A stretch of 64,000 bases of DNA, taken from the NCBI GenBank assembly GCA_027339205.1, contig DAHWOV010000114.1, positions 750 through 64,749 of the forward strand. The letters run 5' to 3'. A model generated the notes under the pieces. That model saw only the letters and a list, made by a program, of their open reading frames with translations, was not told the DNA's origin and ran no database searches. How positions within the stretch are numbered: position 1 is the first letter of the stretch; each line of letters begins with the position of its first letter. This document shows positions 35,616-57,512 of this stretch, in pieces. The DNA comes from Acidimicrobiaceae bacterium (GTDB taxonomy: Bacteria; Actinomycetota; Acidimicrobiia; Acidimicrobiales; RAAP-2). Made by a program: the position numbers and the translations under genes.

Positions 35616-38117
<2,502 letters not shown>

Positions 38118-38126
<9 letters not shown>

Positions 38127-40540: not shown

Positions 40541-40680
40541 CCGCCGAGGGCATCAACAGGGCGGCCCGCGCGGAGCACGCCTGAGGTCCGACCGGCAGGG
40601 GCTTCGCGTCATGGCATGCTCGCGGCCCGAGAGCCTGGACGACGAGCCGACTGCGTCCGCCGGCCGCGCTCGGAGGCCCG

Positions 40681-42320: not shown

Positions 42321-42449
42321 GCGGCGTGCTCGCCGGCTCCTGAGCGGCGTGCTCGCCGGCTTCCACCTTCGCCTTGGCCGCCCCACCTCCCGCGCGTTCG
42401 CGGGCTTTCGGCCCTGGCCGGACGACCGTGTCGGGATCCACACTGCGGT

Positions 42450-45365
42450 GTGGGGATCGGCACGGGCACCGGCACCGGGAGTGGCACGGGCACCGGCACC
42501 GGGATCGGCACGGGCACCGACGAGGAATGGCGCGCGACCGGGCGCACATCAGGCCCGGCGCGCTCCCTCACGTCTCTCGGCGCCGATGAGGCCCTCGCCG
42601 CCCTCGACAGCTCGCGCCGTGGGCTCACGCAAGACGCGGTCGCCGCGCGCCGGGCCACCTCGGGTCGCAACGTGCTGCCTCCGCCGCCGCGCCGGCCGGT
42701 GCTCGCAGAGATCGCGGCCCAGTTCACCAACATGTTCGCCGTCATCCTGGTGGTGGCAGCGGGGCTCACCTTCCTCACCTACCTGCTCTCCACCCCGCGC
42801 GACCCGGCCAACCTCGAGCTCACGTTCGGGATCCTGGCCGTCGTGGTGCTCAACGCGGCGATCGGCTTCGCCCAGGAGCACGCGGCGGAGCGAACGGCCG
42901 AGACGCTCCAGAGCATGCTGCCCCACACCGCCCGGGCGCTGCGCGCCGGACAGCTCACCGAGCTGGGGGTCGACGAGCTGGTCCCCGGCGACCTGGTGGT
43001 GCTCGAAGCCGGCGACGCCGTGCCGGCCGACGGCCGGGTCGTCGAAGCCCACGAGCTGGCCGTCGACATGGCCGCGCTCACCGGGGAGAGCCAGCCGGTC
43101 AGCCGGACCGACCAGCCGGTGGAGCCCGGCACGGCGCCGCTCGACGCCCGCAACTGCGTGTTCATGGGCACCTCGGTCGTGCGCGGCTCCGCCAAGGCCG
43201 CCGTCTTCGCCACCGGGACCGCCACCGAGATCGGCCGCGTCTACCGGCTGACCGCCGAGCAGCCCCCCGAGCCGAGCCCGCTCCAGCGCCAGGTCGCCGA
43301 CATGGCCCGGCGGGTGGCCGCGATCGCCATCGCCGTGGGCGCCCTCGTCTTCGCCCTGCGCATCCTCACCGGCAACGCCGCGGTCGACTCCTTCGTCTTC
43401 GCCCTGGCGGTGATGGTGGCACTCGTGCCCGAGGGGCTCCCTGCCACCCTCTCGGTCTCCCTCGCCGTCGGGGTGCGGCGCATGGCGGCGCGCCAGGCGC
43501 TCATCAAGCGGCTCGCCGCCGTGGAGGCACTCGGATCCACGACGGTGATCTGCACCGACAAGACCGGCACCCTCACCAAGGCGGAGATGACCACCCAGCA
43601 GGTCTACGCCTCGGGCCACGTCCACCGCGTGAGCGGGGTGGGCTACGAGCCGGTCGGTCGAGTGGAGGATCCCGAGCCGATCCTCGGGGTGCTCCGTGCC
43701 GGTGCGCTGTGCACCGACGCGCGCATCTTGCCGCCGTCGGGTCGGGAGGACTGGCGGGTGCTCGGCGACACCACCGAGGGAGCCATCGTGGTGGCGGCCA
43801 TGAAGGCGGGCCTCGACCTCGATGCCGAGTCCGCGCTGACGCCGCGCGTCGGCGTCTTCCCCTTCGACCCGGACCGCAAGCTCATGACCACGCTGCACCG
43901 GACCCCCGACGGGGTCGTGGCCCACGTGAAGGGGTCCCCGCAGGCCGTGCTCGAGCGCTCCGTCTCTGCCGAGTGGGACGGGCGGACCGTGCCGCTCGAC
44001 GACGGGCTGCGCCGGCAGATCGCCGCGGCCAACGACGCGATGGCCCACCAGGGGCTGCGGGTCCTCGCCGTCGCCGACAAGGCGCTGCGCGACGCGAAGG
44101 CGGCCCAGGACGACGCCGAGTCGGGTCTCAGCTTCCTCGGGCTGATCGGGATGGCCGACCCGCCGCGACCCGAGGTCAGCGCGGCGGTCGAGGCCTGCCA
44201 CCGTGCGGGGATCGCGATCATCATGGTCACCGGCGACTACGGGCTCACCGCCGAGACGGTGGCCCGCCGGGTGGGCATCATCGCTGCTGGGCCGGCCCGG
44301 GTGGTCACCGGGGCCGAGCTGGACGCGATGGACGACGACTCCCTGTCGTCGTTGCTCGGCGGGGGCGAGCAGCTGATCTTCGCCCGGGTGCGCCCCGAGC
44401 ACAAGATGCGCATCGTCTCGGCGCTCGAGAGCCGGGGCGAGGTCGTGGCCGTCACCGGCGACGGGGTCAACGACGCGCCCGCGCTGAAGAGGGCGAGCGT
44501 CGGCGTGGCCATGGGACGCAGCGGCACCGACGTGGCACGGGCGGCGGCGGTGATGGTCCTGCTAGACGACTCCTTCGCCTCGATCGCCGCGGCCGTCGAG
44601 CTCGGGCGGTCCGTCTACCAGAACATCCGCCACATGCTCGCCTACATCTTCAGCCACAACCTCGCAGAGCTGGCACCGATCCTCGTCGCCGTCTTCGTCG
44701 GCTTCCCCTTGGTGCCGATCAACGCGCTCCAGGTGCTCTCGATCGACCTCGGCTCCGACGTGCTCCCGGGCATGGCACTGGGCATCGAACGGCCCGAGCC
44801 CGGCACCATGGACCGTCCGCCACGCCCCACCACCGAGCACCTCTTCTCCTGGGAGGTGGTGCGCAGGTTCCTGTTCCTCGGGACGATCGAGTCGGCCGGC
44901 GTCGTCTTCGCCTTCTTCTGGCGGATCCATTCCGCCCACCTGCCCTACTCGGCGTTCACCTCGTCGAACCCCACCTACCGGGAGGCCCTCACCATGACCC
45001 AGGTCGGCATCATCATCAGCCAGTTCTTCAACATGTTCGCCGTGCGCAGCGACCGCCAGAGCGTCCTTCGGATCGGGCTGCTCTCGAACCGGCCCCTCCT
45101 CGGCGCGGCCGTCGTCGACGTGGTCATCGCGGTGGCCGTCAGCTACGTCCCGGCCCTCCAGGCGCTCTTCCACACCGCTCCCCTCCGGCTCTCGGACTGG
45201 CTGGTCCTGACCGGCTTCGGTGCGCTGCTCCTCCTCGCCGACGAGGCGCGCAAGGCGTCGCACCGCCGTACCGGGAGGCGCCGCTGCGTCTCCGGGCACT
45301 CCGGCGGGGGCCCGCCCACCGCCCCGAGCCGCTCCACCGCCCTCGCACACGACCTGGAGGCCTGA
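42450..45365 (+). CDS. P-type ATPase, P2 family, with Na,K/H,K-like M5/M6 residues
   Basis: LTGESQPV, ICTDKTGTLTKAEMT, MVTGDYGLTA, VTGDGVNDAPALKRASVGVAMG. M4 is VPEGLPATLSV, M5 is YIFSHNLAELAP and M6 is LSIDLGSDVLPGMALG. The N-terminus begins with a (GT)n repeat (GIGTGTGTGSGTGTGTGIGTGT). The stop overlaps the trkA start (TGATG). Confidence 0.85.
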   Translation: MGIGTGTGTGSGTGTGTGIGTGTDEEWRATGRTSGPARSLTSLGADEALAALDSSRRGLTQDAVAARRATSGRNVLPPPPRRPVLAEIAAQFTNMFAVILVVAAGLTFLTYLLSTPRDPANLELTFGILAVVVLNAAIGFAQEHAAERTAETLQSMLPHTARALRAGQLTELGVDELVPGDLVVLEAGDAVPADGRVVEAHELAVDMAALTGESQPVSRTDQPVEPGTAPLDARNCVFMGTSVVRGSAKAAVFATGTATEIGRVYRLTAEQPPEPSPLQRQVADMARRVAAIAIAVGALVFALRILTGNAAVDSFVFALAVMVALVPEGLPATLSVSLAVGVRRMAARQALIKRLAAVEALGSTTVICTDKTGTLTKAEMTTQQVYASGHVHRVSGVGYEPVGRVEDPEPILGVLRAGALCTDARILPPSGREDWRVLGDTTEGAIVVAAMKAGLDLDAESALTPRVGVFPFDPDRKLMTTLHRTPDGVVAHVKGSPQAVLERSVSAEWDGRTVPLDDGLRRQIAAANDAMAHQGLRVLAVADKALRDAKAAQDDAESGLSFLGLIGMADPPRPEVSAAVEACHRAGIAIIMVTGDYGLTAETVARRVGIIAAGPARVVTGAELDAMDDDSLSSLLGGGEQLIFARVRPEHKMRIVSALESRGEVVAVTGDGVNDAPALKRASVGVAMGRSGTDVARAAAVMVLLDDSFASIAAAVELGRSVYQNIRHMLAYIFSHNLAELAPILVAVFVGFPLVPINALQVLSIDLGSDVLPGMALGIERPEPGTMDRPPRPTTEHLFSWEVVRRFLFLGTIESAGVVFAFFWRIHSAHLPYSAFTSSNPTYREALTMTQVGIIISQFFNMFAVRSDRQSVLRIGLLSNRPLLGAAVVDVVIAVAVSYVPALQALFHTAPLRLSDWLVLTGFGALLLLADEARKASHRRTGRRRCVSGHSGGGPPTAPSRSTALAHDLEA

Positions 45366-46024
45366 TGCACCTGGTGATCATCGGCTGCGGCCGGACCGGC
45401 TCCACCCTCGCCGCCCGCTTCGACAGCGAGGGCGACAGCGTCTCGGTGGTCGACGACGATCCACAGTCGCGCCGCAGGCTCCCTGACGAGTTCGGGGGCG
45501 AGTTCATCGAGGGCGACGGGCTCGATCGCCAGGTCCTCGAGGCCGCGGGCATCGAGGACGCCGAGGCGCTGATCGCGGTCAGCTCCAGCGACGCCACGAA
45601 CGTCGTCGTCGCCCGTGCGGCGCGTGACCTCTTCCACGTCCCCCACGTCGTCGGGCGCATCGACGACCCCGCCCGTGCCCAATTTGGGGTCGACCTCGGG
45701 CTCACCATGATCGCCACGGTGCGCACCACGGTGGACCGGGTGCACCGGATGCTCCGCCACCCCCGCCTCGAGCCCGAGCGCACCTTCGGCAACGGCGAGA
45801 CGCTGCTCGTACGCGCACCGGTCCCCGACTACCTGGCCGGGAGGAAGGTGGCCGAGCTCGACGTGCCCGGAGAGATCCAGGCGGTCGAGGTCAGCAGGGG
45901 CGGGCACTCCACGATCCCCGCCGGCACCGCGACCCTCCAGACCGGCGACGTCGTGAGCTTCGTCGTGGCCGCCGCCTCGCTCGGGCGGCTCCGCTCGTTC
46001 CTCGGAGGGAGGTGGCCGCAATGA
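45365..46024 (+). CDS. trkA: TrkA-family RCK protein, first of pair 2
   Basis: MHLVIIGCGRTGSTLAARF (GxGxxG) and a TrkA-C segment (LLVRAPVPDYLAGRKVAELDVPGEIQAVEVSRGGHSTIPAGTATLQTGDVVSFVV). It lies within long track ORF 43709-46024. The ATG shares its A with the ATPase TGA. Confidence 0.85.
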   Translation: MHLVIIGCGRTGSTLAARFDSEGDSVSVVDDDPQSRRRLPDEFGGEFIEGDGLDRQVLEAAGIEDAEALIAVSSSDATNVVVARAARDLFHVPHVVGRIDDPARAQFGVDLGLTMIATVRTTVDRVHRMLRHPRLEPERTFGNGETLLVRAPVPDYLAGRKVAELDVPGEIQAVEVSRGGHSTIPAGTATLQTGDVVSFVVAAASLGRLRSFLGGRWPQ

Positions 46025-46716
46025 ACATCGTGGTGGCCGGCGCAGGCACGGTGGGCACGCAGGTCGCCGTCGCCCTGGTCGACGCCGGCAACACCGTGAC
46101 CCTGGTCGACCTCGATCCCGGACGCGCCGCGCAGCTGGCCGGCCGGGGCCTGGGCGTCGTCGTCGGCGACGCCGCCGTCGCCGCGACCCTCGAGGAGGCG
46201 GGAGGGCTCCGCGCGGACGTGCTCGTGGCGTGCACCGGTCAGGACCCCGAGAACCTCGTCATCTCGCTGCTCGCACGCCGGCGCCTCGAGTTCCCCCGCG
46301 TCGTCGCCCGGGTGAAGGACGAGCGCCACCGCTGGCTCTTCGACGAGACGTGGGGGGTCGACGCCGCCATCTCGTCGGCGGGGTCACTGGTGCACCTCAT
46401 CGAGGAAGCCACCGGATCGGCTCGCACCGTCCGCCTGGCCGATCTGTCGGCCGTCGGCCTGGTCCTCGTAGAGGCCACGGTCGGCGCGACGTCGGCAGCC
46501 CGGGGGCGCCTGGTCACGGATCTCGGGCTCGACCGCCACGACCTCGCGGCCGCGGTCATCCGCCACGGCAGGTCGATCCCGACGACCGCCGCCCGCCAGC
46601 TGCGGGTGGGAGACAGGGTGCTCGTGATCACGCGCCCGGGAGGCGAAGACGGCGTCCAGCGCGTCTTCTACCCCGACGACGCGGGAACGCCGGGTGCCAG
46701 TGACGCCCCTTCGTGA
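46021..46716 (+). CDS. trkA: TrkA-family RCK protein, second of pair 2
   Basis: MNIVVAGAGTVGTQVAVALVDAGNTVTLVD and a TrkA-C segment (VLVEATVGATSAARGRLVTDLGLDRHDLAAAVIRHGRSIPTTAARQLRVGDRVLVI). The ATG at 46021 overlaps the upstream stop (ATGA). Confidence 0.85.
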   Translation: MNIVVAGAGTVGTQVAVALVDAGNTVTLVDLDPGRAAQLAGRGLGVVVGDAAVAATLEEAGGLRADVLVACTGQDPENLVISLLARRRLEFPRVVARVKDERHRWLFDETWGVDAAISSAGSLVHLIEEATGSARTVRLADLSAVGLVLVEATVGATSAARGRLVTDLGLDRHDLAAAVIRHGRSIPTTAARQLRVGDRVLVITRPGGEDGVQRVFYPDDAGTPGASDAPS

Positions 46717-46746
46717 CGCCCCTTCGTGACGCCCCTTCGTGACGGG
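46701..46746. repeat. 13-bp x3.5 tandem repeat TGACGCCCCTTCG at the end of trkA
   Basis: Copies start at 46701, 46714 and 46727, with a partial copy at 46740. Because 13 is not a multiple of 3, the TGAs fall in all three frames. The trkA stop is the TGA of copy 2. Confidence 0.8.
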
Positions 46747-46794
46747 AGCTGCCGACACGACGTCCTCCGCGTCGGCGAGCGTCCGACTCCTGCG

Positions 46795-48777
46795 CTACGG
46801 CTGCAACGCGACCGGATGCTCGGTCAGACGGCGAACCGCCCAGGGAAGCGCGACCGACGCGGCGGTCGCTCCGGCGGCGTTGCCCAGGGCGATCCCCCAG
46901 CCGACCGGCCCCATGGGGGTGCAGCCGAAGAACTGGCTCACCACGGGCGTCTGGACGATCGCCACGAGGACCCCGGCCGACGCGGCCGTCGACGCGAGCA
47001 CGAGCGGGCTCGTTCTCCCGACGACCGCCGTCTGCCCGAGCTGCGTGCCGACCAGCCCGACGAGCGCGACGGTGCCGGCCCGCCTCGAGCTCCCGGTCGG
47101 CAGTGCCATCAGCCACGCGCCGAAGGCGCCAGCCGACGTCGCGGCGGCGCGAAGGGCGACCTGGCGGGCGAGCGCGCCGCCGAGCGAGGCGTCGGGCCCC
47201 TCGTGGAGGAGCTCCTCGGGGGTGCGCCCCGGCGGCGCTCGCAGGGCGATCGTCATCGCAGGCATCATGTCGGTAAGGAGGTTCACCAAGAGGAGCTGGC
47301 GCGCCCCGAGCGGGGACGCACCGGAGATGGCCGTCGAACCGAGCACGAAGCCAATCTCGCCCAGGTTCCCCCCGACGAGGATCGCGAGCGCGTCCCGGAC
47401 TGACGCCCACATCGCCCGCCCTTCGACGATCGCGTCCGTGATCGTCTCGATGCGATCGTCGAGGACGACCAGGTCCGCCGCTGCCCGCGCAGCCGGAGAC
47501 CCGTGCCCACCGAGCGCGATGCCGGTGTCGGCAAGCCGGATCGCCGGCGCGTCGTTGGCGCCGTCACCAGTCATGGCGACCGTGCGCCCGACGCGCTGGT
47601 AGGCGCGCACGATCCGCATTTTCTGCTCGGGCGTGACGCGGGCGAAGACGGTCGCACCGGCGACTGCGGCGTCGAGGAGATCGTCGTCCCAGGCGTCGAT
47701 GTCCGCCCCGGTGATGACGTCTGCGCCGTTGAGGATGTCCAGTTCCTCGGCGATGCTCGCCGCGGTCGAGGGATGGTCGCCGGTGATCATCACGACGGAG
47801 ACGCCCGCCGCCCGAAGGCTCGCCACGGAGGCCGCCGCCGTCGGGCGCACCCCGTCGGCCAGTCCGAGGAAGCCGAGCAGCTCCATGCCGGCGATGCGCT
47901 CGTCACCCAAGGCCGCGCTGAGAGAGGCCGGCCGCTCCGCGACGGCGAGGACCCGCAGGCCCTGGCCTGCCAAGTGCTCCACCTGCGCGTCGAGGTACGC
48001 CCGGACGCGCCGGCCGAGCGCCACGGGGCCGTCGGGCGACCTCCACGTGGTGCAGCGGGGCAGCACGACCTCCGGGGCGCCCTTCACCGAGACCCGCGGC
48101 CCGACGGCGCTGTCGCCCACGACGGCGTGGTATCCCCGGGAGGGCTCGAACGCCAGCTCGCCGAGGAGGGTCCAGCCGCCGAGGCCGTCTTGCGCCTGCA
48201 CCCCGGCGGCCTGCGCGCCCTCGACGACCGCTCGATCGGTGGCGTGGGGAAGGTCGCCCTCGGTGTCCGACACCGGACTGGCTCGCAACGCCGCCGCGAG
48301 GACGTACTCGCACCGGGGGGCGAGCTCTGTGAGCTTCTGCACCTGGACGCCGTCCGACACGCTCTGCAGCGCGATCCTGCCGGCGGTGAGCGTGCCCGTC
48401 TTGTCGAAGCACAAGACCTCCACCCGGCCGAGCGCCTCGATCGTCCGCGGGTTGCGGACCAGCACACCGCGGCGGGCAAGTCGTCGGGCCGCCGCCAGCT
48501 GGGCCACGGTGGCCAGCAGCGGAAGGCCCTCGGGCACCGCTGCGACGGTGAGGCTCACCCCTGAGGTCACCGCGACGCGTGGCGAGCGTCCCCGCAGCAG
48601 GCCGAGGCCGACGACGGCAGCGCCGCTGGCGACTGACGCGGGGACGGTCACCTTCATGAGCGAGCTCAGCCGTGCCTCCACCCCGCTCGGCGGCGGCTCG
48701 GGCGCGCCGGCGAGGGTCCGGCCGACCTCGGTCTCGTCCCCCACGGCGACCACGACTCCGAGGGCGCTCCCGGTCAT
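46795..48777 (-). CDS. C-terminal (catalytic) fragment of a giant CtpH/CtpI-like P-type ATPase
   Basis: AVPEGLPLLATV, CFDKTGTLTAGR, MITGDHPSTA, MTGDGANDAPAIRLADTGIALG, NLLTDMMPAM. Similarity to the A-domain consensus (GSVVMTGSALGVVVAVGDETEVG) begins upstream of the first plausible ATG (48777). It therefore looks like the continuation of 48777-51260 in another frame. Confidence 0.75.
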   Translation of the reverse strand: MTGSALGVVVAVGDETEVGRTLAGAPEPPPSGVEARLSSLMKVTVPASVASGAAVVGLGLLRGRSPRVAVTSGVSLTVAAVPEGLPLLATVAQLAAARRLARRGVLVRNPRTIEALGRVEVLCFDKTGTLTAGRIALQSVSDGVQVQKLTELAPRCEYVLAAALRASPVSDTEGDLPHATDRAVVEGAQAAGVQAQDGLGGWTLLGELAFEPSRGYHAVVGDSAVGPRVSVKGAPEVVLPRCTTWRSPDGPVALGRRVRAYLDAQVEHLAGQGLRVLAVAERPASLSAALGDERIAGMELLGFLGLADGVRPTAAASVASLRAAGVSVVMITGDHPSTAASIAEELDILNGADVITGADIDAWDDDLLDAAVAGATVFARVTPEQKMRIVRAYQRVGRTVAMTGDGANDAPAIRLADTGIALGGHGSPAARAAADLVVLDDRIETITDAIVEGRAMWASVRDALAILVGGNLGEIGFVLGSTAISGASPLGARQLLLVNLLTDMMPAMTIALRAPPGRTPEELLHEGPDASLGGALARQVALRAAATSAGAFGAWLMALPTGSSRRAGTVALVGLVGTQLGQTAVVGRTSPLVLASTAASAGVLVAIVQTPVVSQFFGCTPMGPVGWGIALGNAAGATAASVALPWAVRRLTEHPVALQP

Positions 48778-51260
48778 CACGACCGAACCTCGTAGGCCAT
48801 GCAGCTGCGATCGGCCAGCGTTCGGCCCTCGACGGCCTGGCTCTGCTTGGCCACGGGCAGCGACTCCCCGGTCAGGGCTGACTCGTCGATCTCGCACCCG
48901 GCGGTCTCGATCAGGCGGCAGTCCGCCGGGACCACGTCGCCGGCTTTCAGCTCGCAGAGGTCACCCGGGACGAGCTCGGACCGTTCCCTGGGCAGGACCC
49001 GGCCTCCTCGGCGGACATCGACCAGCACCGTCGTCGCCTGCAGCAGCTTGGCGATCGAGACGTCGGCGCGCACGCGCTGGACCCCGCCGATCAGCGCGTT
49101 GGCCGCGGTGGCACCTGCCACCAGCGCGGCGTCGGTCACCGAGCCCACGGCGGCCGCCATACCGGCGCCGACCAGCATCACCGGGGTCAGCGGGTTCGCG
49201 AGCTCGGCGACGACCGCGCGGCCGAAGCCCGTCCGGGCGGGGGCCGCGGGCGCCGTCGTCCCGTGCCGGCGCGCGGCTTCGGCGATCGCCAGCCCCCGGC
49301 GAGTCGTGCCCAGCGCCCGCAAGACTGCGTCAGGGCTCATGGCGTGCCACGCCACCTCGGCGACCGGCATCGCGGCGGGCCGCCGCCCGACGGAAGCCGC
49401 TGCTGCCGTTCCTGCCGCCTGCGCGGCCAGGGATGCGACGTTGACCGGCACCGCCGCCCGCCGGGAGGCGCTCGAGAGCGGGCCGAGCATGGACCACGTC
49501 GCGCCCGCCGCGAACCCTGCCGCCGAGAGCCCGACGCTCCACCGGCTGGCCGAACGCGCCGCCGCCAGCGACTCGACGACCAGGTGCGCCTGGGCCAGGC
49601 TCGGGGACGTCACGAGCGAGGCACCCCACGGAGGGTGCGGCCCGCGGCCGTCGACGCCGACCCCGACGTCCGCCGCGCGCAGGGCGCCGTGGGCCGGGCC
49701 CCCCGACACCAGGAGCACGCCGAGGCCCTCGGCCTGCAGCGACCGCACCGACCTTGCGAGCAGCGTCCCGCCGGCGACCACCTCGTGGGCTCCGATCCGC
49801 TCCCCGAGCCCGCTCGCCTTCCCCGCGAGGACGAGGCGGAGCCCCAGGCGTCGCACCGCGTCGGCGAGCGGCTGGGCCAAAGGGTCGATCTCGGGCTCGA
49901 GGTCCACGACGCCGGCGAGGCGGCCCGACTCCACAATGCCCAGCGCGCGACGCCCGACCCGGCCGCCGGCCGGGACCCCCGAGGCGGCCGGGAGCTCCTC
50001 GGCGACCGCCTCGAGCGTCCCGAGCGCCCACCGTCCGCGCCGGACGAGGCGGTCGGGGGCGGTGGGGTCGAAGAGCGCGCGCGCCTTGTCGGTCGTCGTG
50101 GCGGCGTCGTGGCCGTCCAACACCCTCACGCGGCGAACCACCATCCGACCGGACCGCAGGACGGCGGCGTCGAGCACGACCGCATCGATGCGGTCGAGCC
50201 GGCGCAGCGCGGTCCTGTCGAGCACGACGACGTCACGGGACGCCAGCTCGCGCCCGAGGCGCGCGGCGAACGCCTCGCGCCCGTGACGGGCAGCTTTGGG
50301 GACCCCTGCGGTGACGACCCCGCCGGCGAGCCGAGGGCTCCTCGTGGCAGCGAGCACCGCGCCCACGCCCGCGACGCTGACGGCGGCGGCCGCGTCGGCG
50401 TAGGACTCGACGGGACCGGACCTGAGCGGCCGGGTACGCGGGGGCGGGGCCACCGCACGCACGGGCTCGGCGTCGGGCGAGTCGCAGAGGTCCCCCTCCC
50501 GGCGCTCCCACGCACGGCGGTGCGCCTGCAGCTCGCCGAGCTGGTTCGCCCGGTGCGCCATGTCGGCCACGAGGGCGAGCGGTCCCTGCGAGAGGGACTG
50601 GGCGAAGGCGCTCGCGACCCCGAGCCCGAGGTCGGTGAGCGCGACGCCGATGTGGTGCTCGAGGAGCCCTCGAACCCTCGGCTCGTTCTCGACCAGCGCG
50701 ACGAGCGAGCCGAGCTCGACGGGGAAGGGGGCCGCGCGCAGGACCTGGCCGAAGACGCTCCCGCCCAGCGCGACCACGTCGGCACCGATCGCCACGGCCT
50801 GACGGCGCAGGGGTTCGACGTCCCCGGGATGTTCGGGACGCTCGCGGGGGAAGCGCTCCTCTTGGACCTCGTGCGCCTCCTCGACGCCTTCGACGACGTC
50901 GACGAGGTCGTCGACCGACGGACCGTCAGGATCGAAGGCCACCACGACGCGTCCGGTGAGGGCGTTGACCTGCGCCCACTGCACGCCTTCGGCGGCGTGC
51001 AGTGCCCGCTCCACGTCACGAGCGAGCGCCTCCGTGCCGGCGCGGTGGACGCCGCGCACCTCGATGTGCGCCTTGCCGCTGCCCGCCCACACCCTGCGGC
51101 GGCGGCGTCCCGAGCCCAGCGCGGCGCCGAGCACCGCACCGGGTGCCGCCGCGCCGGCACGCAGGAGCGCGATCGGGTTCCTCACCACCTCGATGCCGCC
51201 CGCCGGGAGCGACGCGGCGCGCTCAAGTGCGACGATGCCGGGCGATTGCCACGCCCACAC
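48777..51260 (-). CDS. N-terminal fragment of the giant P-type ATPase: HMA-like domain + degenerate pseudo-ATPase module + start of the true ATPase
   Basis: HIEVRGVHRAGTEALARDVERALHAAEGVQWAQVNALTGRVVVAF has the HMA fold pattern but no CxxC. VVLDAAVLRSG stands in place of DKTGTLT, and LLVSGGPAHGALRAADVGVGV in place of TGDGxNDxPAL. The true pump begins with GLAIAEAARRHG..ELVPGDLCELKAGDVVPADCRL..DESALTGESLPV and stops at TGA 48779-48777, in the middle of the A-domain. Confidence 0.75.
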   Translation of the reverse strand: MWAWQSPGIVALERAASLPAGGIEVVRNPIALLRAGAAAPGAVLGAALGSGRRRRRVWAGSGKAHIEVRGVHRAGTEALARDVERALHAAEGVQWAQVNALTGRVVVAFDPDGPSVDDLVDVVEGVEEAHEVQEERFPRERPEHPGDVEPLRRQAVAIGADVVALGGSVFGQVLRAAPFPVELGSLVALVENEPRVRGLLEHHIGVALTDLGLGVASAFAQSLSQGPLALVADMAHRANQLGELQAHRRAWERREGDLCDSPDAEPVRAVAPPPRTRPLRSGPVESYADAAAAVSVAGVGAVLAATRSPRLAGGVVTAGVPKAARHGREAFAARLGRELASRDVVVLDRTALRRLDRIDAVVLDAAVLRSGRMVVRRVRVLDGHDAATTTDKARALFDPTAPDRLVRRGRWALGTLEAVAEELPAASGVPAGGRVGRRALGIVESGRLAGVVDLEPEIDPLAQPLADAVRRLGLRLVLAGKASGLGERIGAHEVVAGGTLLARSVRSLQAEGLGVLLVSGGPAHGALRAADVGVGVDGRGPHPPWGASLVTSPSLAQAHLVVESLAAARSASRWSVGLSAAGFAAGATWSMLGPLSSASRRAAVPVNVASLAAQAAGTAAAASVGRRPAAMPVAEVAWHAMSPDAVLRALGTTRRGLAIAEAARRHGTTAPAAPARTGFGRAVVAELANPLTPVMLVGAGMAAAVGSVTDAALVAGATAANALIGGVQRVRADVSIAKLLQATTVLVDVRRGGRVLPRERSELVPGDLCELKAGDVVPADCRLIETAGCEIDESALTGESLPVAKQSQAVEGRTLADRSCMAYEVRS

Positions 51261-51459
51261 CGACGAGCACGGCCACGGGCAGGTCGACCACGCCGAGGAC
51301 GACCGCCGCGCCGAGTCCGGCGTAGAAGCCGCGGGTCACCGTCGGCTCGCACAGGCGCGCATGGACGAGCGGCACGACGAACCGGTCCGCCTCGACCTGC
51401 ACGGCCGGCGAGGTCTGGAACCGCGGGCTCCCCGCGGCTCCACGTGCGCTCATGGACAT
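51223..51459 (-). CDS. Possible small membrane protein upstream of the giant ATPase
   Basis: The ATG at 51459 is preceded by GGGAG at 6 nt. The 78-aa product ends in a hydrophobic helix (FYAGLGAAVVLGVVDLPVAVLVGVGVAIA) and overlaps the ATPase start by 38 nt. From memory, small membrane ORFs also precede ctpH/ctpI in M. tuberculosis. Confidence 0.35.
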   Translation of the reverse strand: MSMSARGAAGSPRFQTSPAVQVEADRFVVPLVHARLCEPTVTRGFYAGLGAAVVLGVVDLPVAVLVGVGVAIARHRRT

Positions 51460-51620
51460 GTCCGCTCCCGTCGCTTCAACCAGGTCATCGTATTCCCGAT
51501 CCCCGTGAGGCTGGCGGCGGGCCGCCTCCACGCCCAGGTCGGTAGTCTTGGTAGGCCAGATGCCCACCACGCGCCCATCCGTGACGGCCTTGCGTGGCCA
51601 GCCCGCCGAGGGAGGCTGAC

Positions 51621-52322
51621 GTGGCCACGGACATGCTGTTCTCGAAGGACGCCTACCTGCGTGAGGTCCAGGCCGTCGTCACCCGCGTCGAGGGCAACCG
51701 GGTGGTGCTCGACCGCACGGTCTTCTACCCGACCGGCGGCGGCCAACCGCACGACACCGGCACGCTCGGCGGTGCCCGCGTGGTCGACGTGACGAAGGAG
51801 GGCGACGACGTCTGGCACGCGCTCGAAGGGCCGGTGCCCGAGCTCGGCGCTGCCGTCGCGGGGCACCTCGACTGGGAGCGGCGCTACGCGCTCATGAGGA
51901 CCCACACCGCGCTGCACGTGCTGTCGGGGGTCATCTGGCACGAGTGGGGCAAGGCCGTCACCGGGGGGAACATGGAGCCGCTCGTCGCCCGCATGGACTT
52001 CGAGTTCGACCCGCTCCCCGAGGGCTTCGGCGCGACCGTCGAGGCCCGCGTCAACCAGGAGCTCGCCGCGGCGCGTCCCATCGAGGTCCGCTTCCTTGCG
52101 CGCGACGCCGCCCTCGCGGACGAGGACCTGATCAGGACCAAGGTCAACCTGGTGCCCGAGGCGGTGAGGGAGCTGCGCGTCGTGGACATCGTCGGGCTCG
52201 ACAAGCAGGCGGACGGGGGCACCCACGTCCGGCGCACCGACGAGGTCGGGCGGATCCGCGTCGTGAAGACCGAGTCGAAGGGCAGAGCGAACAAGCGCAT
52301 CCGCATCGCGGTGCTCGACTGA
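51621..52322 (+). CDS. AlaX-type tRNA editing-domain protein (Ser-tRNA(Ala) deacylase-like, COG2872-like)
   Basis: KDAYLREVQAVVTRVEGNRVVLDRTVFYPTGGGQPHDTG, the HxxxH zinc motif MRTHTALHVLSG, and a C-terminal LDKQADGGTHVRRTDEVGRIRVV that reads DGGTH where I expect CGGTH. GTG at 51621 follows GAGGGAGG; alternative starts are 51594 and 51633. The stop overlaps the selB start (TGATG). Confidence 0.8.
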   Translation: MATDMLFSKDAYLREVQAVVTRVEGNRVVLDRTVFYPTGGGQPHDTGTLGGARVVDVTKEGDDVWHALEGPVPELGAAVAGHLDWERRYALMRTHTALHVLSGVIWHEWGKAVTGGNMEPLVARMDFEFDPLPEGFGATVEARVNQELAAARPIEVRFLARDAALADEDLIRTKVNLVPEAVRELRVVDIVGLDKQADGGTHVRRTDEVGRIRVVKTESKGRANKRIRIAVLD

Positions 52323-54319
52323 TGGCACGGGAGGCCGCGAGGGGCGCCGCGGGCGTCGGGGACGGTGCAGACCCGCCGCCGTCGCGCGTGGTGGTCACCG
52401 CAGGCCACGTGGACCACGGGAAGTCGACGCTCGTCGAGTGGCTGACCGGGACCCACCCCGACCGGTTGGAGGAAGAGCGGCGTCGGGGCCTGACCATCGA
52501 CCTCGGGTTCGCCTCGACCGTCCTCCCCTCGGGCATCGAGGCGGGCATCGTCGACGTCCCCGGGCACGTCCGCTTCCTGAAGAACATGGTCGCGGGGGTC
52601 GGGGCGGTGGACGCCTGCCTGTTCGTGGTGGCGGCGACCGAGGGATGGAAGCCGCAGACCGAGGACCACCTGCGCATCCTCGAGGTGGTCGGCGTACGCC
52701 ACGGCGTCGTGGCGCTCACGCACGCCGGGACGGCCGGCCCCGAGCGGCTCGACGAGGCGCGCGCCGACGTGCGAGCCCGCGTGGCGGGGACCTTCCTCGA
52801 GGGGGCGCCGGTGGCGGCCGTGGACGTCCCCGCGGGCCTCGGGCTGGACGGGCCCGGGGGCCTGCGCGCAGCCCTCGACGCGATGGTCGCGTCCCTGCCC
52901 GCGGCACCCGACCGCGGGCGGCCGCGCCTGTGGATCGACCGCTCGTTCGCGATCCGCGGAGCCGGGGCGGTGGTCACCGGCACGCTCGCGGGCGGGAGGA
53001 TCGCGCTCGGCGACCACCTCGAGGTCGTCTCGTCCGCGTCCGCCCTCCCGGTGCCTGTCCGCGTCCGGGGACTGGAGAGCTACGGCAGACGCCTCCGCTC
53101 GGCCGAGCCGGGGCGGCGCCTCGCAGTCAACCTGGCCGGCGTGGACCACCGCGGCACCGCCCGGGGCGCCGCCTTGGTGCGGGCTCGGCAATGGCACCGA
53201 TGCAGCGTGGCGGACGCCGAGCTGGCGACGGCCCCCGCGCTCAGCCACCCGGTGTCCGCACGCGGCGCGTACCTCGCCCACCTCGGGACGGGGGAGCAGG
53301 CCGTGCGCCTCCGGGTCCTCGGGCGCGAGAGCGAGATCGCGCCCGGCACGCGCAAGGCGGTGCGGTTGTGGCTCAGCGCGCCGCTCCCGCTCGCGCCCGG
53401 CGACAAGTTCGTGCTCCGCGACGCGGGACGAAACGAGGTCGTCGGCGGGGGCACGCTGCTCGACGTCGCCCCCGTGCTCCCCGCCTCGCGGGCCGAGCCG
53501 AGCTGGTCGGTCGCCCGGGTGGTCGCAGAGCGCGGCTGGGTGGAGGCGGACGAGCTCGAGCGGCTGACCGGCAGGGCGGCCACCCCGACGCTCGGGCGCT
53601 GGGTGGTCGACCCCGAAGCCCTCGAGCGTGCCCGTGCGGCGGTCGCCGCGCGCGTGCGCGCGGCGGGGGCGTCGGGACTCGACCTGTCCGTCCTCGACGA
53701 ACGAGAGAGAGCCGTCGTGGCGATGCTCGACGGGCTCACCGTGTCCCACGGCATCGTGCGAGCGGCACCTGTGCGAGCAGCGCTCGTGCGAGCAGCGCCT
53801 GTGCCGACCCGTGCCCCGGCCGGTCCCTCGGGCGGTCCCTCGGGCGGTGCGTCGGCCTCGGGGTCGGGCCTTGGGTCGGCGCCGGCGGGGACTGCGGGAG
53901 GCGGCCTCGACGACGGCGCGGCAGCCGACGCCGACTTGCTCGACCACCCTTACCTCACCGCGCTGCGCGCCTCGCCGTTCGACCCGCCCCCTCCGACCGG
54001 CGTCGCGCGCAACGACCTCCGCCGCCTCGTCCGCAGCGGTCTCGTCGTCGAGACGAACGGCCTGTGGTTCGCGGCGAGCGCGCTCGAGGAGGCAGCGTCG
54101 CGCGTCTCGGCCTTGCTCGCCCGGGCGCCGGGCGGCATCCGCGTGGCCGACGTCCGCGACGCGCTCGGCGCGTCGCGCCGCACGGTGCTCCCACTGCTCG
54201 CGCACCTCGACGCGACGGGGGTCACCCGGCGCGACGGCGACCTGCGCACGCCCGGCCCCAAGCTGCCCCCGCCTCCCGGCGCGGCGGGGATCGACCCATG
54301 CACAAGGAGTGCCCCATGA
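52322..54319 (+). CDS. selB: Selenocysteine-specific translation elongation factor
   Basis: G-domain VVVTAGHVDHGKSTLVEWLTG, DRLEEERRRGLTIDLGF, VDVPGHVRFLKNM. EF-Tu-like domains II/III and C-terminal winged-helix repeats follow (LRRLVRSGLVVE, VLPLLAHLDATGVTRR). It is followed by selD and selA. It lies within track ORF 51944-54319. Confidence 0.9.
   Translation: MAREAARGAAGVGDGADPPPSRVVVTAGHVDHGKSTLVEWLTGTHPDRLEEERRRGLTIDLGFASTVLPSGIEAGIVDVPGHVRFLKNMVAGVGAVDACLFVVAATEGWKPQTEDHLRILEVVGVRHGVVALTHAGTAGPERLDEARADVRARVAGTFLEGAPVAAVDVPAGLGLDGPGGLRAALDAMVASLPAAPDRGRPRLWIDRSFAIRGAGAVVTGTLAGGRIALGDHLEVVSSASALPVPVRVRGLESYGRRLRSAEPGRRLAVNLAGVDHRGTARGAALVRARQWHRCSVADAELATAPALSHPVSARGAYLAHLGTGEQAVRLRVLGRESEIAPGTRKAVRLWLSAPLPLAPGDKFVLRDAGRNEVVGGGTLLDVAPVLPASRAEPSWSVARVVAERGWVEADELERLTGRAATPTLGRWVVDPEALERARAAVAARVRAAGASGLDLSVLDERERAVVAMLDGLTVSHGIVRAAPVRAALVRAAPVPTRAPAGPSGGPSGGASASGSGLGSAPAGTAGGGLDDGAAADADLLDHPYLTALRASPFDPPPPTGVARNDLRRLVRSGLVVETNGLWFAASALEEAASRVSALLARAPGGIRVADVRDALGASRRTVLPLLAHLDATGVTRRDGDLRTPGPKLPPPPGAAGIDPCTRSAP
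53756..53800. repeat. 15-bp x3 tandem repeat inside selB (VRAAP units), followed by 12-bp x2 (GPSG)
   Basis: GTGCGAGCGGCACCT / GTGCGAGCAGCGCTC / GTGCGAGCAGCGCCT, then GGTCCCTCGGGC x2 at 53822-53845. Together they encode IVRAAPVRAALVRAAPVPTRAPAGPSGGPSGGAS. Confidence 0.75.
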
Positions 54320-55344
54320 CCCAGCACGACGCCGCCACGACTGCGACCTCCTTCGACCTCACCGAGTGGACCACCTGCGGGGGCTGCGCGGCCAAGTGGG
54401 GCGCGGGACCGCTCGACCTGTTGCTCGCGACGCTCGCTTCCCGCCCCGGCGACGGGTCGCTCCTAGTCGGGCTCGACTCGTTCGACGACGCAGCCGTCCT
54501 CGCGCTCACCGAGGACCTCGCGCTCGTGTCGACGACGGACTTCTTCCCGCCGATGGTCGCCGACCCCGCCGACTACGGCGCCATCGCCGCCGCCAACGCG
54601 TGCAGCGACGTGTTCGCGATGGGGGGCAGCGTGGTGCTCGCGCTCAACATCGCGGCCTTTCCCGAGCACCTTCCCCACGAGGTGATCGACGCCATCGTCT
54701 CTTCCGCCGCGGCCGTCGTCGCCGAGGCGGGGGGCGTGGTCGCCGGGGGCCACACGATCCGCTCCCAGGAGCCGATCTTCGGCCTCGCGGTCCAAGGTCT
54801 GGTGCACCCCGCACGGATCCTCACCAAGCGCGCCGCCCACCCCGGCCAGGCGGTGGTCCTCTCCAAGCGGCTCGGCACCGGGATCGTCCTCCAGGACGGC
54901 ACCGACGAGGAGCGGCGGGCGACGGTGGCGGGCATGCGCCGGCTCAACAAGGAGGCGTCTTCGACCTTGCAAGCACTCGGTGCTGCCGTCGGCGCAGTGA
55001 CCGACGTGACGGGGTTCGGCCTCCTCGGGCACGGCTGGGAGGTGGCGGAGCGCTCGGGGGTGTCGCTCGTCCTCGAGGCCGACAGGCTCCCGCTCTACCC
55101 CGGCGCGCTCGATGCCGCCCGGCGCGGGGTGCGCACCGGCGGCGACCGCCGCAACCGCGACCACCTCGAAGGACGCGTCAGGTCGTCGGTCACAGCGGCG
55201 CGGGAAGCGCTGGCCTTCGACCCGCAGACCTCCGGTGGGCTGCTCGCGACGGTGGACCGCGACGTGCTGGCGGAGCTCACCGGCCGCGGGTTCGTGGCCA
55301 TCGGGACGGTGGAAGCGGGCCCTGCCGAGGTGCTGCTCACGTGA
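54316..55344 (+). CDS. selD: Selenide, water dikinase (selenophosphate synthetase), Cys-type
   Basis: The ATG at 54316 follows AAGGAG and overlaps the selB stop (ATGA). TTCGGCAAKWG is the catalytic Cys-x-x-Lys, with no in-frame TGA. It also has STTDFFPPMVADPADYGAIAAANACSDVFAMGG and AGGHTI. It is the 3' part of track ORF 52438-55344. Confidence 0.9.
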   Translation: MTQHDAATTATSFDLTEWTTCGGCAAKWGAGPLDLLLATLASRPGDGSLLVGLDSFDDAAVLALTEDLALVSTTDFFPPMVADPADYGAIAAANACSDVFAMGGSVVLALNIAAFPEHLPHEVIDAIVSSAAAVVAEAGGVVAGGHTIRSQEPIFGLAVQGLVHPARILTKRAAHPGQAVVLSKRLGTGIVLQDGTDEERRATVAGMRRLNKEASSTLQALGAAVGAVTDVTGFGLLGHGWEVAERSGVSLVLEADRLPLYPGALDAARRGVRTGGDRRNRDHLEGRVRSSVTAAREALAFDPQTSGGLLATVDRDVLAELTGRGFVAIGTVEAGPAEVLLT

Positions 55345-56714
55345 CGACCCCGACCGGAGGCGGCGGCGCGGCCGGGAGGTTCGACGGCGACGGCCGGCGG
55401 GGTGGCGCGGACGGCCGAAGCGGGAGCGGGGCGAGGTCCTCCGCACGCCCGCCGTCCGTCGACGCCCTGGCTCGGTCGATGGCGCCGAGCGGCCTCCCCC
55501 ACCCCGTGCTCGTCGACGCGGCGCGCGACGCGATCGCTGCAGGCGAGCCCACGAGCGCAGCCACACGCGTGGAGCGGTTCGCGGCGACGCTCCTTCGCCC
55601 CGTGATCAACGCCACCGGCGTCCTCCTCCACACCAACCTGGGGCGCGCGCCGGTGTCGGTCGCGCGCGGCGGTGAGCCTGCCCGGTTCGCCAACGTGGAG
55701 CTCGACCTCGAGACGGGACGCCGGGGGTCGAGGAGCGACCACGCCGCGCGGCTGCTCGCGCTCGCCGCGGGCGCAGAGGCCGCGCTCGTCGTGAACAACG
55801 GCGCGTCCGCGCTGCTGCTCGCGCTCAGCGCGCTGGCGGCGGGCACGAGGGTGCCGGTGAGCCGGGGCGAGCTCGTGGAGATCGGTGGCGGCTTCCGGAT
55901 CCCCGAGGTGCTCGCCGCCTCCGGAGCGACCCTCGTCGAGGTGGGGACGACCAACCGGACCCGTCTCGCCGACTACCGCGACGTCGTCACCGCTGCGGAC
56001 GGGGCGGTGGGCCTCGTCCTGAAGGTGCACCGGTCCAACTACCAGATGGTGGGCTTCACCCATGAGGTCGCCGTACGCGAGCTCGCGACGCTCGGGGTGC
56101 CGGTGGTCTTCGACATCGGATCGGGGCTCTTGGACGAGTCGACTCCGTGGCTCCGAGGGGGCCCGCCACCGTGGTTGCGCGGGGAGCCGGCGGCCCGGCA
56201 GGCGCTCGAGCAGGGTGCGGCGCTCGTGACGTTCTCGGGCGACAAGCTGCTCGGCGGGCCTCAGGCAGGCGTGATCGCCGGACGTCGCGAGCTCGTGCAG
56301 GCGTGCGCGCGCCACCCGCTCGCCCGCGCGCTCCGACCCGGGGGCCTCGTGCTCGAGGTGCTCCAGCAGACCGCCCTCGCCTATCTGCGCCGGGAGGGGG
56401 ACTACATCGCCTTCTGGCGGATGGCGCAGGTGCCCGTCGACGAGCTGCTCACACGCGCCCACGCGCTCGGGGTGGGCGAGGTGGTGCGCTGCTGCTCGGT
56501 CCCGGGCGGCGGCACGCTCCCGGGCCTCGAGCTCGACTCCGCGGGCATCGCGCTGGACGGTGACCGGACCGCAGCGCTCCGCCGGGCCGACGTCCCCGTC
56601 GTGGCACGGGTCCACCAGGGGCGAACGGTCTGCGACCTGCGCACGGTCGACCCGGCCGACGACCGCCTCGTCGCCCAAGCTGCAGCGGCAGCGCTCGGAG
56701 GCACCGGTCGGTAG
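55341..56714 (+). CDS. selA: L-seryl-tRNA(Sec) selenium transferase
   Basis: GTG at 55341 overlaps the selD stop (GTGA). INATGVLLHTNLGRAP, NNGASALLLAL, GELVEIGGGFRIPEV, the PLP-Lys region LVLKVHRSNYQMVGF, and TFSGDKLLGGPQAGVI. It is the 3' part of track ORF 53628-56714. Confidence 0.9.
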   Translation: MTTPTGGGGAAGRFDGDGRRGGADGRSGSGARSSARPPSVDALARSMAPSGLPHPVLVDAARDAIAAGEPTSAATRVERFAATLLRPVINATGVLLHTNLGRAPVSVARGGEPARFANVELDLETGRRGSRSDHAARLLALAAGAEAALVVNNGASALLLALSALAAGTRVPVSRGELVEIGGGFRIPEVLAASGATLVEVGTTNRTRLADYRDVVTAADGAVGLVLKVHRSNYQMVGFTHEVAVRELATLGVPVVFDIGSGLLDESTPWLRGGPPPWLRGEPAARQALEQGAALVTFSGDKLLGGPQAGVIAGRRELVQACARHPLARALRPGGLVLEVLQQTALAYLRREGDYIAFWRMAQVPVDELLTRAHALGVGEVVRCCSVPGGGTLPGLELDSAGIALDGDRTAALRRADVPVVARVHQGRTVCDLRTVDPADDRLVAQAAAAALGGTGR

Positions 56715-56755
56715 CCGGACCGCCTGCAGCCGGTGAGCCCAGGGGGGCGGGAAAG

Positions 56756-56797
56756 CGGGGGTCCGGGGGCGGGGTCCGGGGGCGGGGTCCGGGGGGC
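56756..56797 (+). repeat. G-rich 13-bp x3 tandem repeat (CGGGGTCCGGGGG) between convergent selA and parA-like genes
   Basis: Six consecutive G4-G6 runs are separated by 1-3 nt on the plus strand, which is a canonical G-quadruplex-forming pattern. It starts 42 nt after the selA stop. Confidence 0.7.
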
Positions 56798-56805
56798 GCG
56801 GCGAG

Positions 56806-57390
56806 TCAACGCCCCCGGCGCCGCAGGAGACGCCGGAGGACGTCGTCGTAGACCTCGATCCCCTCACGGCTCAGCCGGGCTTCAGGGCCACTCGCGATCG
56901 AGACGCGCTCGGGCACAACCGCCCAGATCGGGACCTGCTCGGCCTCCCACCAGGCGAGGGCCTGGGCGAGGTCGTTGGTGCCGAGCCTGGCCGCACAGAC
57001 GACGACCCCGTAGGGGATCTTCGACGGCACCATCTCGAGGGTCGCCACGACGCGCGAGAACTCGACGCCTCCCGCACGGGTCGGGATCACCACCGCGTCG
57101 GCACGCTCGATCGCCGCCCGGACGATCCGCTCGTCGCCAGGGGGGGTGTCGACCACTGCGAGCCCGTCGTGGCGCTCCATCGCGCGGGTGACCGTCCGCT
57201 CGGACGGCGCCTCGACGAGCTCGACCCCTTCGATCGGGCGCGCCTCGAGCCACTCGGCGGACGACGCCTGACGGTCGGCGTCGACGAGCAGGACCGGGTC
57301 CAAGCCGCGCTCGACGGCTGATGCGGCAAGGTAGACGGCGGTGGTGGTCTTGCCCACCCCACCTTTCACATTGCTCACGACGATGTTCAC
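56806..57390 (-). CDS. Small ParA/MinD-family ATPase (orphan)
   Basis: MNIVVSNVKGGVGKTTTAVYLAASA (deviant Walker A), LLVDADRQASS, VVDTPPG. At 194 aa it has the size of a plasmid-type ParA. No ParB-like or centromere-binding partner gene is adjacent. Confidence 0.8.
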   Translation of the reverse strand: MNIVVSNVKGGVGKTTTAVYLAASAVERGLDPVLLVDADRQASSAEWLEARPIEGVELVEAPSERTVTRAMERHDGLAVVDTPPGDERIVRAAIERADAVVIPTRAGGVEFSRVVATLEMVPSKIPYGVVVCAARLGTNDLAQALAWWEAEQVPIWAVVPERVSIASGPEARLSREGIEVYDDVLRRLLRRRGR

Positions 57391-57471
57391 GACCGGACCT
57401 GCTGGCGTAGGGACGGTGGCGAGTCTGCCGCGCGCCGCGGGACCCGTCCAGCCGGGGCGGGAGCCGGATCA

Positions 57472-57512
57472 CGTCGAGCTCGGGCAGCGTCGAGCTCGGG
57501 TAGCGTCCCGCT
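57472..57512 (+). promoter_or_regulatory. 16-bp x2 direct repeat plus TAGCGT -10-like hexamer positioned for a leaderless transcript of the LLM gene
   Basis: GTCGAGCTCGGGCAGC / GTCGAGCTCGGGTAGC. TAGCGT (57501-57506, TANNNT) ends exactly 6 nt before GTG 57513, and no Shine-Dalgarno is present. Confidence 0.3.

Follow-up and report, generated by a model that had tools for sequence, protein, structure and literature searches.

An alaX-like gene lying directly in front of genes of the selenocysteine (Sec) pathway raises the question of whether an editing enzyme has been drawn into that pathway or has simply come to be its neighbor. AlaX enzymes are expected to act on tRNA(Ala) mischarged with Ser or Gly. 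The answer depends on what the protein is, how widely the gene pairing is found, and how the locus is likely to be expressed.

Four overlapping genes

In the window, meaning the whole 64-kb stretch of DNA that was analyzed, four plus-strand genes can be read directly as a chain joined by stop/start overlaps. The first, alaX (51621..52322, 233 aa), is predicted to encode a free-standing aminoacyl-tRNA deacylase of the AlaX-M type in an Asp variant, as family profiles, PDB matches, and the AF2 fold indicate. Its TGA (52320-22) shares one base with the ATG (52322-24) of selB in a TGATG overlap at 52320-52324. The selB gene (52322..54319), for a selenocysteine-specific elongation factor of 665 aa, meets selD (54316..55344; selenide, water dikinase, 342 aa) at an ATGA (54316-54319) made of the selD ATG and the selB TGA; selD in turn meets selA (55341..56714; L-seryl-tRNA(Sec) selenium transferase, 457 aa) at a GTGA (55341-55344) made of the selA GTG and the selD TGA. 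On a contig with 99.92% identity to the window (L114/L120), the gene call at ENA lists these four products too, at the same lengths and with the same GTG start for alaX. Between the window and the recorded contig there is a difference of one base. Beyond the operon, a convergent gene on the minus strand (56806..57390) encodes a ParA/CbiA-like ATPase.

SelD, of the Cys type (TCGGCAAK), scores 322.2 bits against TIGR00476 (cutoff 125), and SelA scores 377.9 bits against TIGR00474 (cutoff 267.9) and 308 bits against Pfam SelA, so that both exceed their equivalog cutoffs. SelB lies just under the cutoff of TIGR00475 (236.2 bits against 242.25); its matches to the Pfam domains GTP_EFTU, Beta-barrel_SelB (30.9 bits, cutoff 27), and SelB-wing_3 (49.4 bits, cutoff 23.2) are all above cutoff, and both the GTPase and the C-terminal winged-helix SECIS-binding domains are present. 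Variation in SelB is found in an N-terminal extension and in an internal segment at about 53761-53918, where the alignment of relatives has a gap (53760-53920), and the stretch PPSRVV(V/A)TAGHVDHGK upstream of the G domain is kept in relatives. An alternative selB start, a GTG just before VVVTAGH, was rejected because all relatives keep the preceding PPSR at the protein level.

Direct reading, family profiles, and the ENA gene call agree with the four gene identities and three overlaps of the preliminary description. Because co-directional overlaps of 1-4 nt are common in high-GC actinobacteria, the chaining of four genes is by itself unremarkable. Canonical sel clusters (selAB of E. coli, selA-selB in related contigs, and selA-selB-selD-selC in L096) are likewise tightly packed and co-directional and encode the same three proteins, each of which has a normal family score here, and the window cluster differs from them in its order selB-selD-selA, in the alaX gene and short upstream open reading frame (uORF) in front, and in the lack of selC within 64 kb. 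Searches of the window with ARAGORN and Rfam found no tRNA-Sec gene, and a scan of it gave no convincing candidate for a selenoprotein gene with an in-frame TGA; either could be encoded outside the window. The idea that the 16 kb upstream of alaX form a mobile island was also rejected: a search turned up no direct repeat of the tRNA-Pro 3' end, and there is no integrase among the called genes.

Aspartate in the editing site of AlaX

The alaX product matches the NCBIfam AlaXM profile NF040865 over positions 1-233 of 234 with 266.7 bits, below the equivalog cutoff of 300, and also matches Pfam tRNA_SAD, the C-terminal part of tRNA-synt_2c, and the AlaX-M structures 9iuw and 2e1b (E about 1e-32). 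Its AF2 model (pLDDT 92.6) gives TM-scores of 0.93-0.94 against the barrel plus editing domain of AlaRS (query-length normalized) and, against AlaX-M, of 0.83-0.84 by query length and 0.90-0.92 by target length. Like the AlaX-M proteins of Pyrococcus horikoshii and P. furiosus (2e1b, 9iuw), it is a full-length protein with an N-terminal beta-barrel and an AlaRS-type editing domain, no C-Ala domain, and both the HxxxH and GGQP motifs; unlike them, it is bacterial, scores under the NCBIfam equivalog cutoff, and has Asp in place of the CXGXH Cys.

The first metal motif, HTALH (residues 95-99, 51903-51917), is invariant in homologues. The second, where AlaX-M is expected to have CXGXH, reads DGGTH (52212-52226), and its D198 (52212-14) aligns with the Cys of 2e1b, 9iuw, 2zze, 2ztg, and 3kew, among which are Pyrococcus AlaX-M and archaeal AlaRS. 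Alignment to the Cys-type proteins has upheld the earlier remark that Asp replaces Cys here. Among the PDB matches there is no solved structure of an Asp-type member, and the relatives that have a structure carry CGGTH.

DGGTH, first taken to suggest an altered active site, does not set this locus apart. Asp is present in all 120 close homologues, in 119/119 of the best-scoring matches to a profile made from distant Asp-type members (the named ones being Chloroflexota), and in one archaeal member from Thermoplasmatales. DGGTH is, as these alignments indicate, a trait of a large AlaX-M subfamily that takes in at least Acidimicrobiia, Chloroflexota, and a Thermoplasmatales archaeon; since Asp is subfamily-wide, the change from Cys is unrelated to selenocysteine.

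The subfamily is, at the level of its motifs, at odds with the published description of CXGXH as invariant, and mutagenesis has shown the Cys of that motif to be crucial for editing (PMC12003907). Loss of a catalytic Cys could mean that the Asp-type protein is inactive or serves another substrate and does not deacylate Ser- or Gly-tRNA(Ala), a reading to which the score under the AlaXM cutoff also lends something. We regard it as improbable. The residues D198 and H202, the two His of HxxxH, and the GGQP motif do not vary among the members from Acidimicrobiia and Chloroflexota, which indicates a maintained active site; AlaX-M and the editing module of AlaRS have essentially the same fold as the one predicted here; Asp is common as a zinc ligand; and some Asp-type Chloroflexota members carry the NCBI name AlaXM.

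Linkage of alaX and sel genes in Acidimicrobiia

This genome is not alone in having the adjacency: the neighborhood check that the preliminary description called for turned up nine further contigs (L001-L004, L060, L081, L082, L116, and L117). Neighboring genes were taken from tblastn anchors together with the collection's gene calls, GC3-based callers having mis-called overlapping genes in this DNA of 75% GC; synteny was assessed by stringent blastn, tblastx being swamped by low-complexity high-GC matches. The TGATG junction of alaX and selB is kept in L001, L003, and L004, becomes GTGA in L002, and in L116 is a one-base overlap according to the gene call.

Adjacency in at least ten contigs, with a stop/start overlap in most, is what might be expected if AlaX had been recruited to the Sec pathway, to hydrolyze unconverted Ser-tRNA(Sec) for quality control or for tuning of the SelA substrate pool, or else to protect tRNA(Ala) at high serine flux, and if stoichiometric co-expression had been selected. 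Such functional coupling is nevertheless very unlikely, in part because the linkage is confined to one Acidimicrobiia subclade from whichever side it is viewed. Among assessable Acidimicrobiia alaX loci, selB-selD-selA lies downstream in 5 of 70 and the remaining 65 have no sel neighbor; among assessable related selB loci, alaX is upstream in 2 of 24 and missing from 22, selA standing directly upstream of selB in 21/24, which is the usual order. Among the loci assessed, the adjacency was not found to recur in phylogenetically separate lineages or to go along with the Sec trait.

The proteins themselves point the same way. Seven linked AlaX proteins are monophyletic and nested, with normal branch lengths, in the Acidimicrobiia AlaX tree, and linked and unlinked orthologues differ at just two positions, N107H and I185L, both conservative, with all motif residues invariant; no specializing substitutions are seen. 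The tree and the substitutions tell against a divergent paralogue, and the protein that had been proposed as a paralogue specialized for Ser-tRNA(Sec) is better described as the ordinary orthologue of a lineage in which 65/70 loci are unlinked. L009 and L063 fall inside the linked group or next to it and have no sel genes adjoining alaX. In L060 and L117 the overlap itself is absent, and a GC-rich spacer of roughly 180-230 nt with inverted repeats lies between the alaX stop and the selB start; in L117, genes for an AsnC-type regulator and a Dabb protein precede alaX.

Also counting against coupling, unrelated downstream genes are conserved to an equal degree. The linked loci have in common a block alaX-selB-selD-selA-parA-like-LLM oxidoreductase, to which the ParA/CbiA-like ATPase gene of the window belongs; the parA-like gene comes right after selA and is followed by the luciferase-like (LLM) oxidoreductase gene in L001, L003, L004, L060, L082, L116, and L117, and the synteny reaches across parA-like, 84-aa, LLM, and PepC genes. 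Co-conservation of such genes with the linkage argues for plain synteny. Set against pure synteny, the adjacency has persisted, in most contigs with its coupling, while the AlaX proteins of linked contigs have diverged to 72-87% identity, a pattern consistent with weak selection for co-expression.

Likely expression of the locus and the proposed selenocysteine connection

The stop of alaX and the start of selB share a base, which leaves no space for a terminator between them, and the single transcription unit suggested earlier is likely on the strength of the chained overlaps. A scan for terminator-like sites at 51000-57500 found none, and one for consensus promoters near alaX found nothing, both being of E. 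coli type and not informative for this phylum. In L060 there are two terminator-like sites, both on the minus strand, and the terminator scans gave no others.

A GGGAGG at 51610-15 forms the ribosome-binding site of the alaX GTG at 51621, AAGGAG at 54304-09 that of selD, and GAGGTG that of selA; direct reading of the sequence upstream of the selB start in the window revealed no recognizable Shine-Dalgarno sequence. That gap might be taken to mean, as might the long inverted-repeat spacers of L060 and L117 with their hint of an ancestral independent sel promoter, that transcription of the sel genes begins chiefly at a promoter within alaX or at its end and that the overlap has no regulatory meaning. 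Separate expression of this kind seems unlikely: a shared stop/start base, leaving no terminator room, occurs in the window and four relatives; translational coupling itself predicts a selB without a Shine-Dalgarno sequence, which agrees with coupled re-initiation; and consensus scans detected no promoter in either spacer, scans of the E. coli type being uninformative for this phylum.

Conservation points to a leader in front of alaX. A candidate -10 hexamer, TAGTCT (51543..51548, plus strand), is suggested by the presence of TAGTGT or TAGTCT, within differing flanks, 11-12 nt 5' of the short-ORF ATG in L002, L003, L004, L081/L116, and L082. It would be followed by a putatively translated ORF of 19 codons, MPTTRPSVTALRGQPAEGG (51560..51619, plus strand), whose TGA ends 1 nt 5' of the alaX GTG. 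In the window and in L001-L004, L082, L075, and L116, a stop codon adjoins the alaX start or overlaps it (as TGA-N-GTG; in L116 as GTGA), and an in-frame ATG 61-83 nt 5' of that start opens an ORF of 19-28 codons in the window, L002, L003, L004, L082, and L116; the peptides are not conserved in sequence, but the ORFs differ in length by multiples of three.

This leader with its conserved short uORF, gained by the core clade as its own, is a point in favor of recruitment to the Sec pathway, as is the finding that human AlaX (AARSD1) hydrolyzes Ser-tRNA(Sec) in vitro and that AlaX enzymes have relaxed tRNA specificity (PMC11260482). A literature search found no described biochemical connection of AlaX with the Sec pathway other than this human activity. 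A link of this kind, which the preliminary description did not know of, is not entirely new. By analogy, an interaction of the window protein with Ser-tRNA(Sec) is not impossible. Both are AlaX-family enzymes; the human one, however, is an AlaX-L enzyme that has a C-Ala domain and the canonical Cys, its action on Ser-tRNA(Sec) reflects general Ser specificity and relaxed tRNA choice, and its gene is not linked to Sec genes. Destruction of the substrate of SelA would, moreover, be counter-productive unless regulated. The most specific form of the idea, in which the Asp-type AlaX of the subclade has been co-opted as a checkpoint that clears Ser-tRNA(Sec) escaping SelA, is made 1:1 with SelB through TGATG, and is controlled by the clade-specific leader uORF, is extremely unlikely. 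Were the proposed link between AlaX and selenocysteine real, the Sec pathway would for the first time have an editing factor of its own.

Probably, then, a housekeeping, trans-editing AlaX is co-transcribed and translationally coupled with a complete but rearranged sel cluster through lineage-specific synteny and is no dedicated selenocysteine proofreader. The sel cluster would have come to sit downstream of a resident alaX in the ancestor of the subclade, and the core group would later have lost the spacer between alaX and selB. A single mRNA may start from a promoter just 5' of alaX, with TAGTCT (51543-48) as its candidate -10 element, and run through the 19-codon uORF; ribosomes may terminate and re-initiate at TGATG in passing from alaX to selB, and selD and selA would be translated from their own Shine-Dalgarno sites. 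AlaX would retain its general editing role, the Asp at its metal/active site being a trait of the whole subfamily.

The original interpretation of this locus is thus partly supported. The linkage, most likely a matter of inherited gene order, ought not to be carried forward as if it were a functional association. More useful is the by-product, a large AlaX-M subfamily with Asp in place of a supposedly invariant, catalytically crucial, oxidation-sensitive CXGXH Cys. Recent work argues that zinc in AlaRS-type editing sites serves to protect that Cys against reactive oxygen species (PMC12003907), and a natural Cys-free editing site would offer a direct test case for the zinc-shield model: whether it binds zinc, whether it is active, and whether it is intrinsically peroxide-proof.

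The overlapping alaX-sel gene chain

Direct reading of the window confirms the three stop/start overlaps that the preliminary description had reported along alaX (51621-52322), selB (52322-54319), selD (54316-55344) and selA (55341-56714); the recorded gene calls on the near-identical contig L114/L120 give the same four products (233, 665, 342 and 457 aa). The A of the alaX stop codon TGA (52320-52322) is the first base of the selB ATG (52322-52324); ATGA (54316-54319) is common to the end of selB and the start of selD, and GTGA (55341-55344) to the end of selD and the start of selA. Shine-Dalgarno-like sequences lie 5-7 nt before the alaX, selD and selA starts. None was found upstream of the selB start in the window, the usual signature of re-initiation coupling, and a simple terminator scan of 51000-57500 returned no terminator-like site. 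On this layout, alaX-selB-selD-selA is a probable single operon.

SelA and SelD score above their NCBIfam equivalog cutoffs; SelB falls marginally short (236.2, cutoff 242.25), but the beta-barrel and winged-helix Pfam domains specific to SelB are present. Its N-terminal extension (52322-52390) is hypervariable and of low complexity, with a 21-nt repeat (ARATSVG) present five times in frame at 8705-8840 of L001, a linked locus (one with alaX directly upstream of sel genes), and its internal Ala/Gly/Pro-rich insertion (about 53761-53918) is variable and unalignable between relatives. ARAGORN and Rfam detected no tRNA-Sec in the 64-kb window or the linked loci; in the more distant relative L096/L097 selA-selB-selD is followed by tRNA-Sec, L096 having a complete selA-selB-selD-selC cluster (tRNA-Sec, 4342-4437).

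Distribution and history of the linkage

The G+C content of the window is about 75%, and the closest homologues of its genes belong to Acidimicrobiia/Acidimicrobiales metagenome-assembled genomes; the relatives compared are metagenome-assembled or metagenomic contigs throughout. Adjacency of alaX and sel genes recurs in related contigs, yet it is rare when counted from either side. Taking one genome per species gave 80 Acidimicrobiia loci whose alaX orthologues encode proteins sharing 65-82% identity with that of the window; among the 70 assessable (at least 1.5 kb of downstream sequence), only 5 have selB-selD-selA downstream (L001-L004, L060). Two further linked loci (L116, L117) and two unlinked loci came from exact-protein look-ups; in the unlinked pair, hypothetical/NIL genes follow alaX in one and a helicase in the other. 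Starting instead from selB, a scan of metagenomes yielded 28 contigs with SelB relatives, 24 with enough upstream sequence to assess. Only two of these, L081 and L082, have alaX upstream of selB, and these two are the closest full-length SelB relatives (73-74% identity); the usual selA-selB order, with selA directly upstream, is found in 21/24.

A neighbour-joining tree built from 82 AlaX sequences groups seven linked proteins into a single clade that nests within the Acidimicrobiia tree; the unlinked L009 is its sister, and the next branch pairs the linked L060 with the unlinked L063. Consistent differences between linked and unlinked proteins are limited to N107H and I185L, both conservative and both with residues also found in unlinked sequences, and motif residues are invariant across the two groups; there is therefore no sign of the specialised paralogue suggested earlier. 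The proposal that the linked protein proofreads Ser-tRNA(Sec) lacks comparative support but may be biochemically feasible: the human AlaX enzyme has a general Ser specificity that in vitro extends to hydrolysis of Ser-tRNA(Sec), an activity whose in vivo relevance its authors leave open (PMC11260482). No published account of alaX being genomically associated with sel genes turned up in a literature search.

Genes unrelated to selenocysteine insertion are kept downstream of selA wherever a linked locus extends far enough. Seven of these loci have a convergent ParA/CbiA-like ATPase gene there (L002 lacks it) and seven an LLM (luciferase-like) oxidoreductase gene; the 84-aa ORF is found in two, and PepC follows in two. 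The side upstream of alaX varies. The alaX and selB reading frames are separated by about 180 nt in L060 and about 226 nt in L117, and both spacers are GC-rich and contain inverted repeats. L117 has two genes ahead of alaX in the same orientation (4977-6004), one for an AsnC-type regulator and then one of the Dabb (stress-responsive alpha-beta barrel) type, the latter overlapping the start of alaX; there, alaX does not lead its transcription unit. The simplest account of the linkage has two steps: a sel cluster would have come to sit downstream of a resident alaX in the ancestor of the subclade, and in the core group the alaX-selB spacer would then have shrunk to TGATG.

In L085, L098 and L106, with selA-selB in canonical order, a tRNA-Pro(CGG) gene lies about 2.2-2.4 kb downstream of selB; in L002, L081, L082 and L116, with alaX-selB-selD-selA, it lies 1.5-1.9 kb upstream of alaX. 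Its presence near the sel cluster in both arrangements hints that rearrangement took place in situ around a conserved tRNA-Pro neighbourhood. In the window, the interval from tRNA-Pro(CGG) (35096-35173) to alaX, just 1.5-1.9 kb in those four linked contigs, is 16.4 kb (35174-51540) and encodes three P-type cation ATPases, an XFP phosphoketolase, PHO4, a PhoU-like protein and two TrkA proteins; an integrase and a tRNA-end direct repeat were sought in this segment and neither was found. Contig L114/L120, with its own independent gene calls, is 99.92% identical to the window. Relative to L114, the window lacks one C at about 48788, so that a gene for a 1488-aa P-type ATPase is broken into two overlapping minus-strand ORFs (48777-51260 and 46795-48780), and the window has a 13-nt insertion at 46700-46712; these differences could be frameshift, strain variation or assembly error.

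Proposed promoter and leader of alaX

Upstream of alaX, the core linked clade conserves a hexamer, TAGTGT or TAGTCT (TAGTCT at 51543-51548 in the window), at equivalent positions in L002, L003, L004, L081/L116 and L082. An ATG 11-12 nt past it opens an ORF of 19-28 codons (51560-51619 in the window) that ends either right against the start of alaX (TGA-N-GTG) or overlapping it (GTGA). Frame and length class are kept although the peptide varies, and this putative leader uORF is an addition specific to the sel-linked core clade. A divergent 115-aa ORF without a family match (51223-51570, minus strand), which overlaps the ATPase gene start and the proposed promoter/uORF region, may be spurious.

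Among unlinked orthologues (L005-L080), 42/73 have a -10-like element (CAGAAT/CAGACT/ACAAT) between -30 and +8 of the alaX start, the commonest position being 6-7 nt ahead of the start codon; AGAAT is found near the start in 18 unlinked loci and in none of the upstream background. This is how leaderless actinobacterial genes look, and it points to alaX usually being transcribed without a leader in Acidimicrobiia. Both patterns, linked and unlinked, place a promoter just upstream of alaX, supporting its earlier reading as first annotated cistron.

An Asp-type AlaX subfamily

The alaX product matches NCBIfam AlaXM end to end (266.7 bits, under the equivalog cutoff of 300) and also hits structures of Pyrococcus AlaX-M (E about 1e-32). 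Its AlphaFold2 model (mean pLDDT 92.6) superimposes on the archaeal AlaRS beta-barrel and editing module with TM 0.93-0.94, and on AlaX-M with 0.83-0.84 by query length or 0.90-0.92 by target length. The first motif, HTALH, is present; the second reads DGGTH (52212-52226), its Asp aligning with Cys in every solved relative, including bacterial 3kew. The altered second motif noticed in the preliminary description is thus real, but it is not peculiar to this locus, since 120/120 closest homologues share DGGTH.

More widely, of 111 near-full-length proteins, each representing one 50%-identity cluster and sharing 36-68% identity with the query, about 83 have Asp and about 14 have Cys at the aligned column. 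A profile built from distant Asp-type members retrieved 119 proteins, all with QADGGTH; matches bearing an organism name are all Chloroflexota/Anaerolineae, several named AlaXM by NCBI. A protein from a Thermoplasmatales archaeon belongs to an Asp-type cluster at 38% identity. D198, H95, H99 and H202 are invariant. By these alignments, Asp for Cys is a trait of an AlaX subfamily, and the change is therefore unrelated to selenocysteine.

Our literature search found no paper describing an Asp form of AlaX. HXXXH/CXGXH has been stated to be invariant in all AlaRS-type editing domains, with the Cys crucial and zinc serving to shield it from oxidation (PMC12003907). The Asp-type subfamily conflicts with each of these statements: the invariance of CXGXH, the crucial Cys and the zinc shield.
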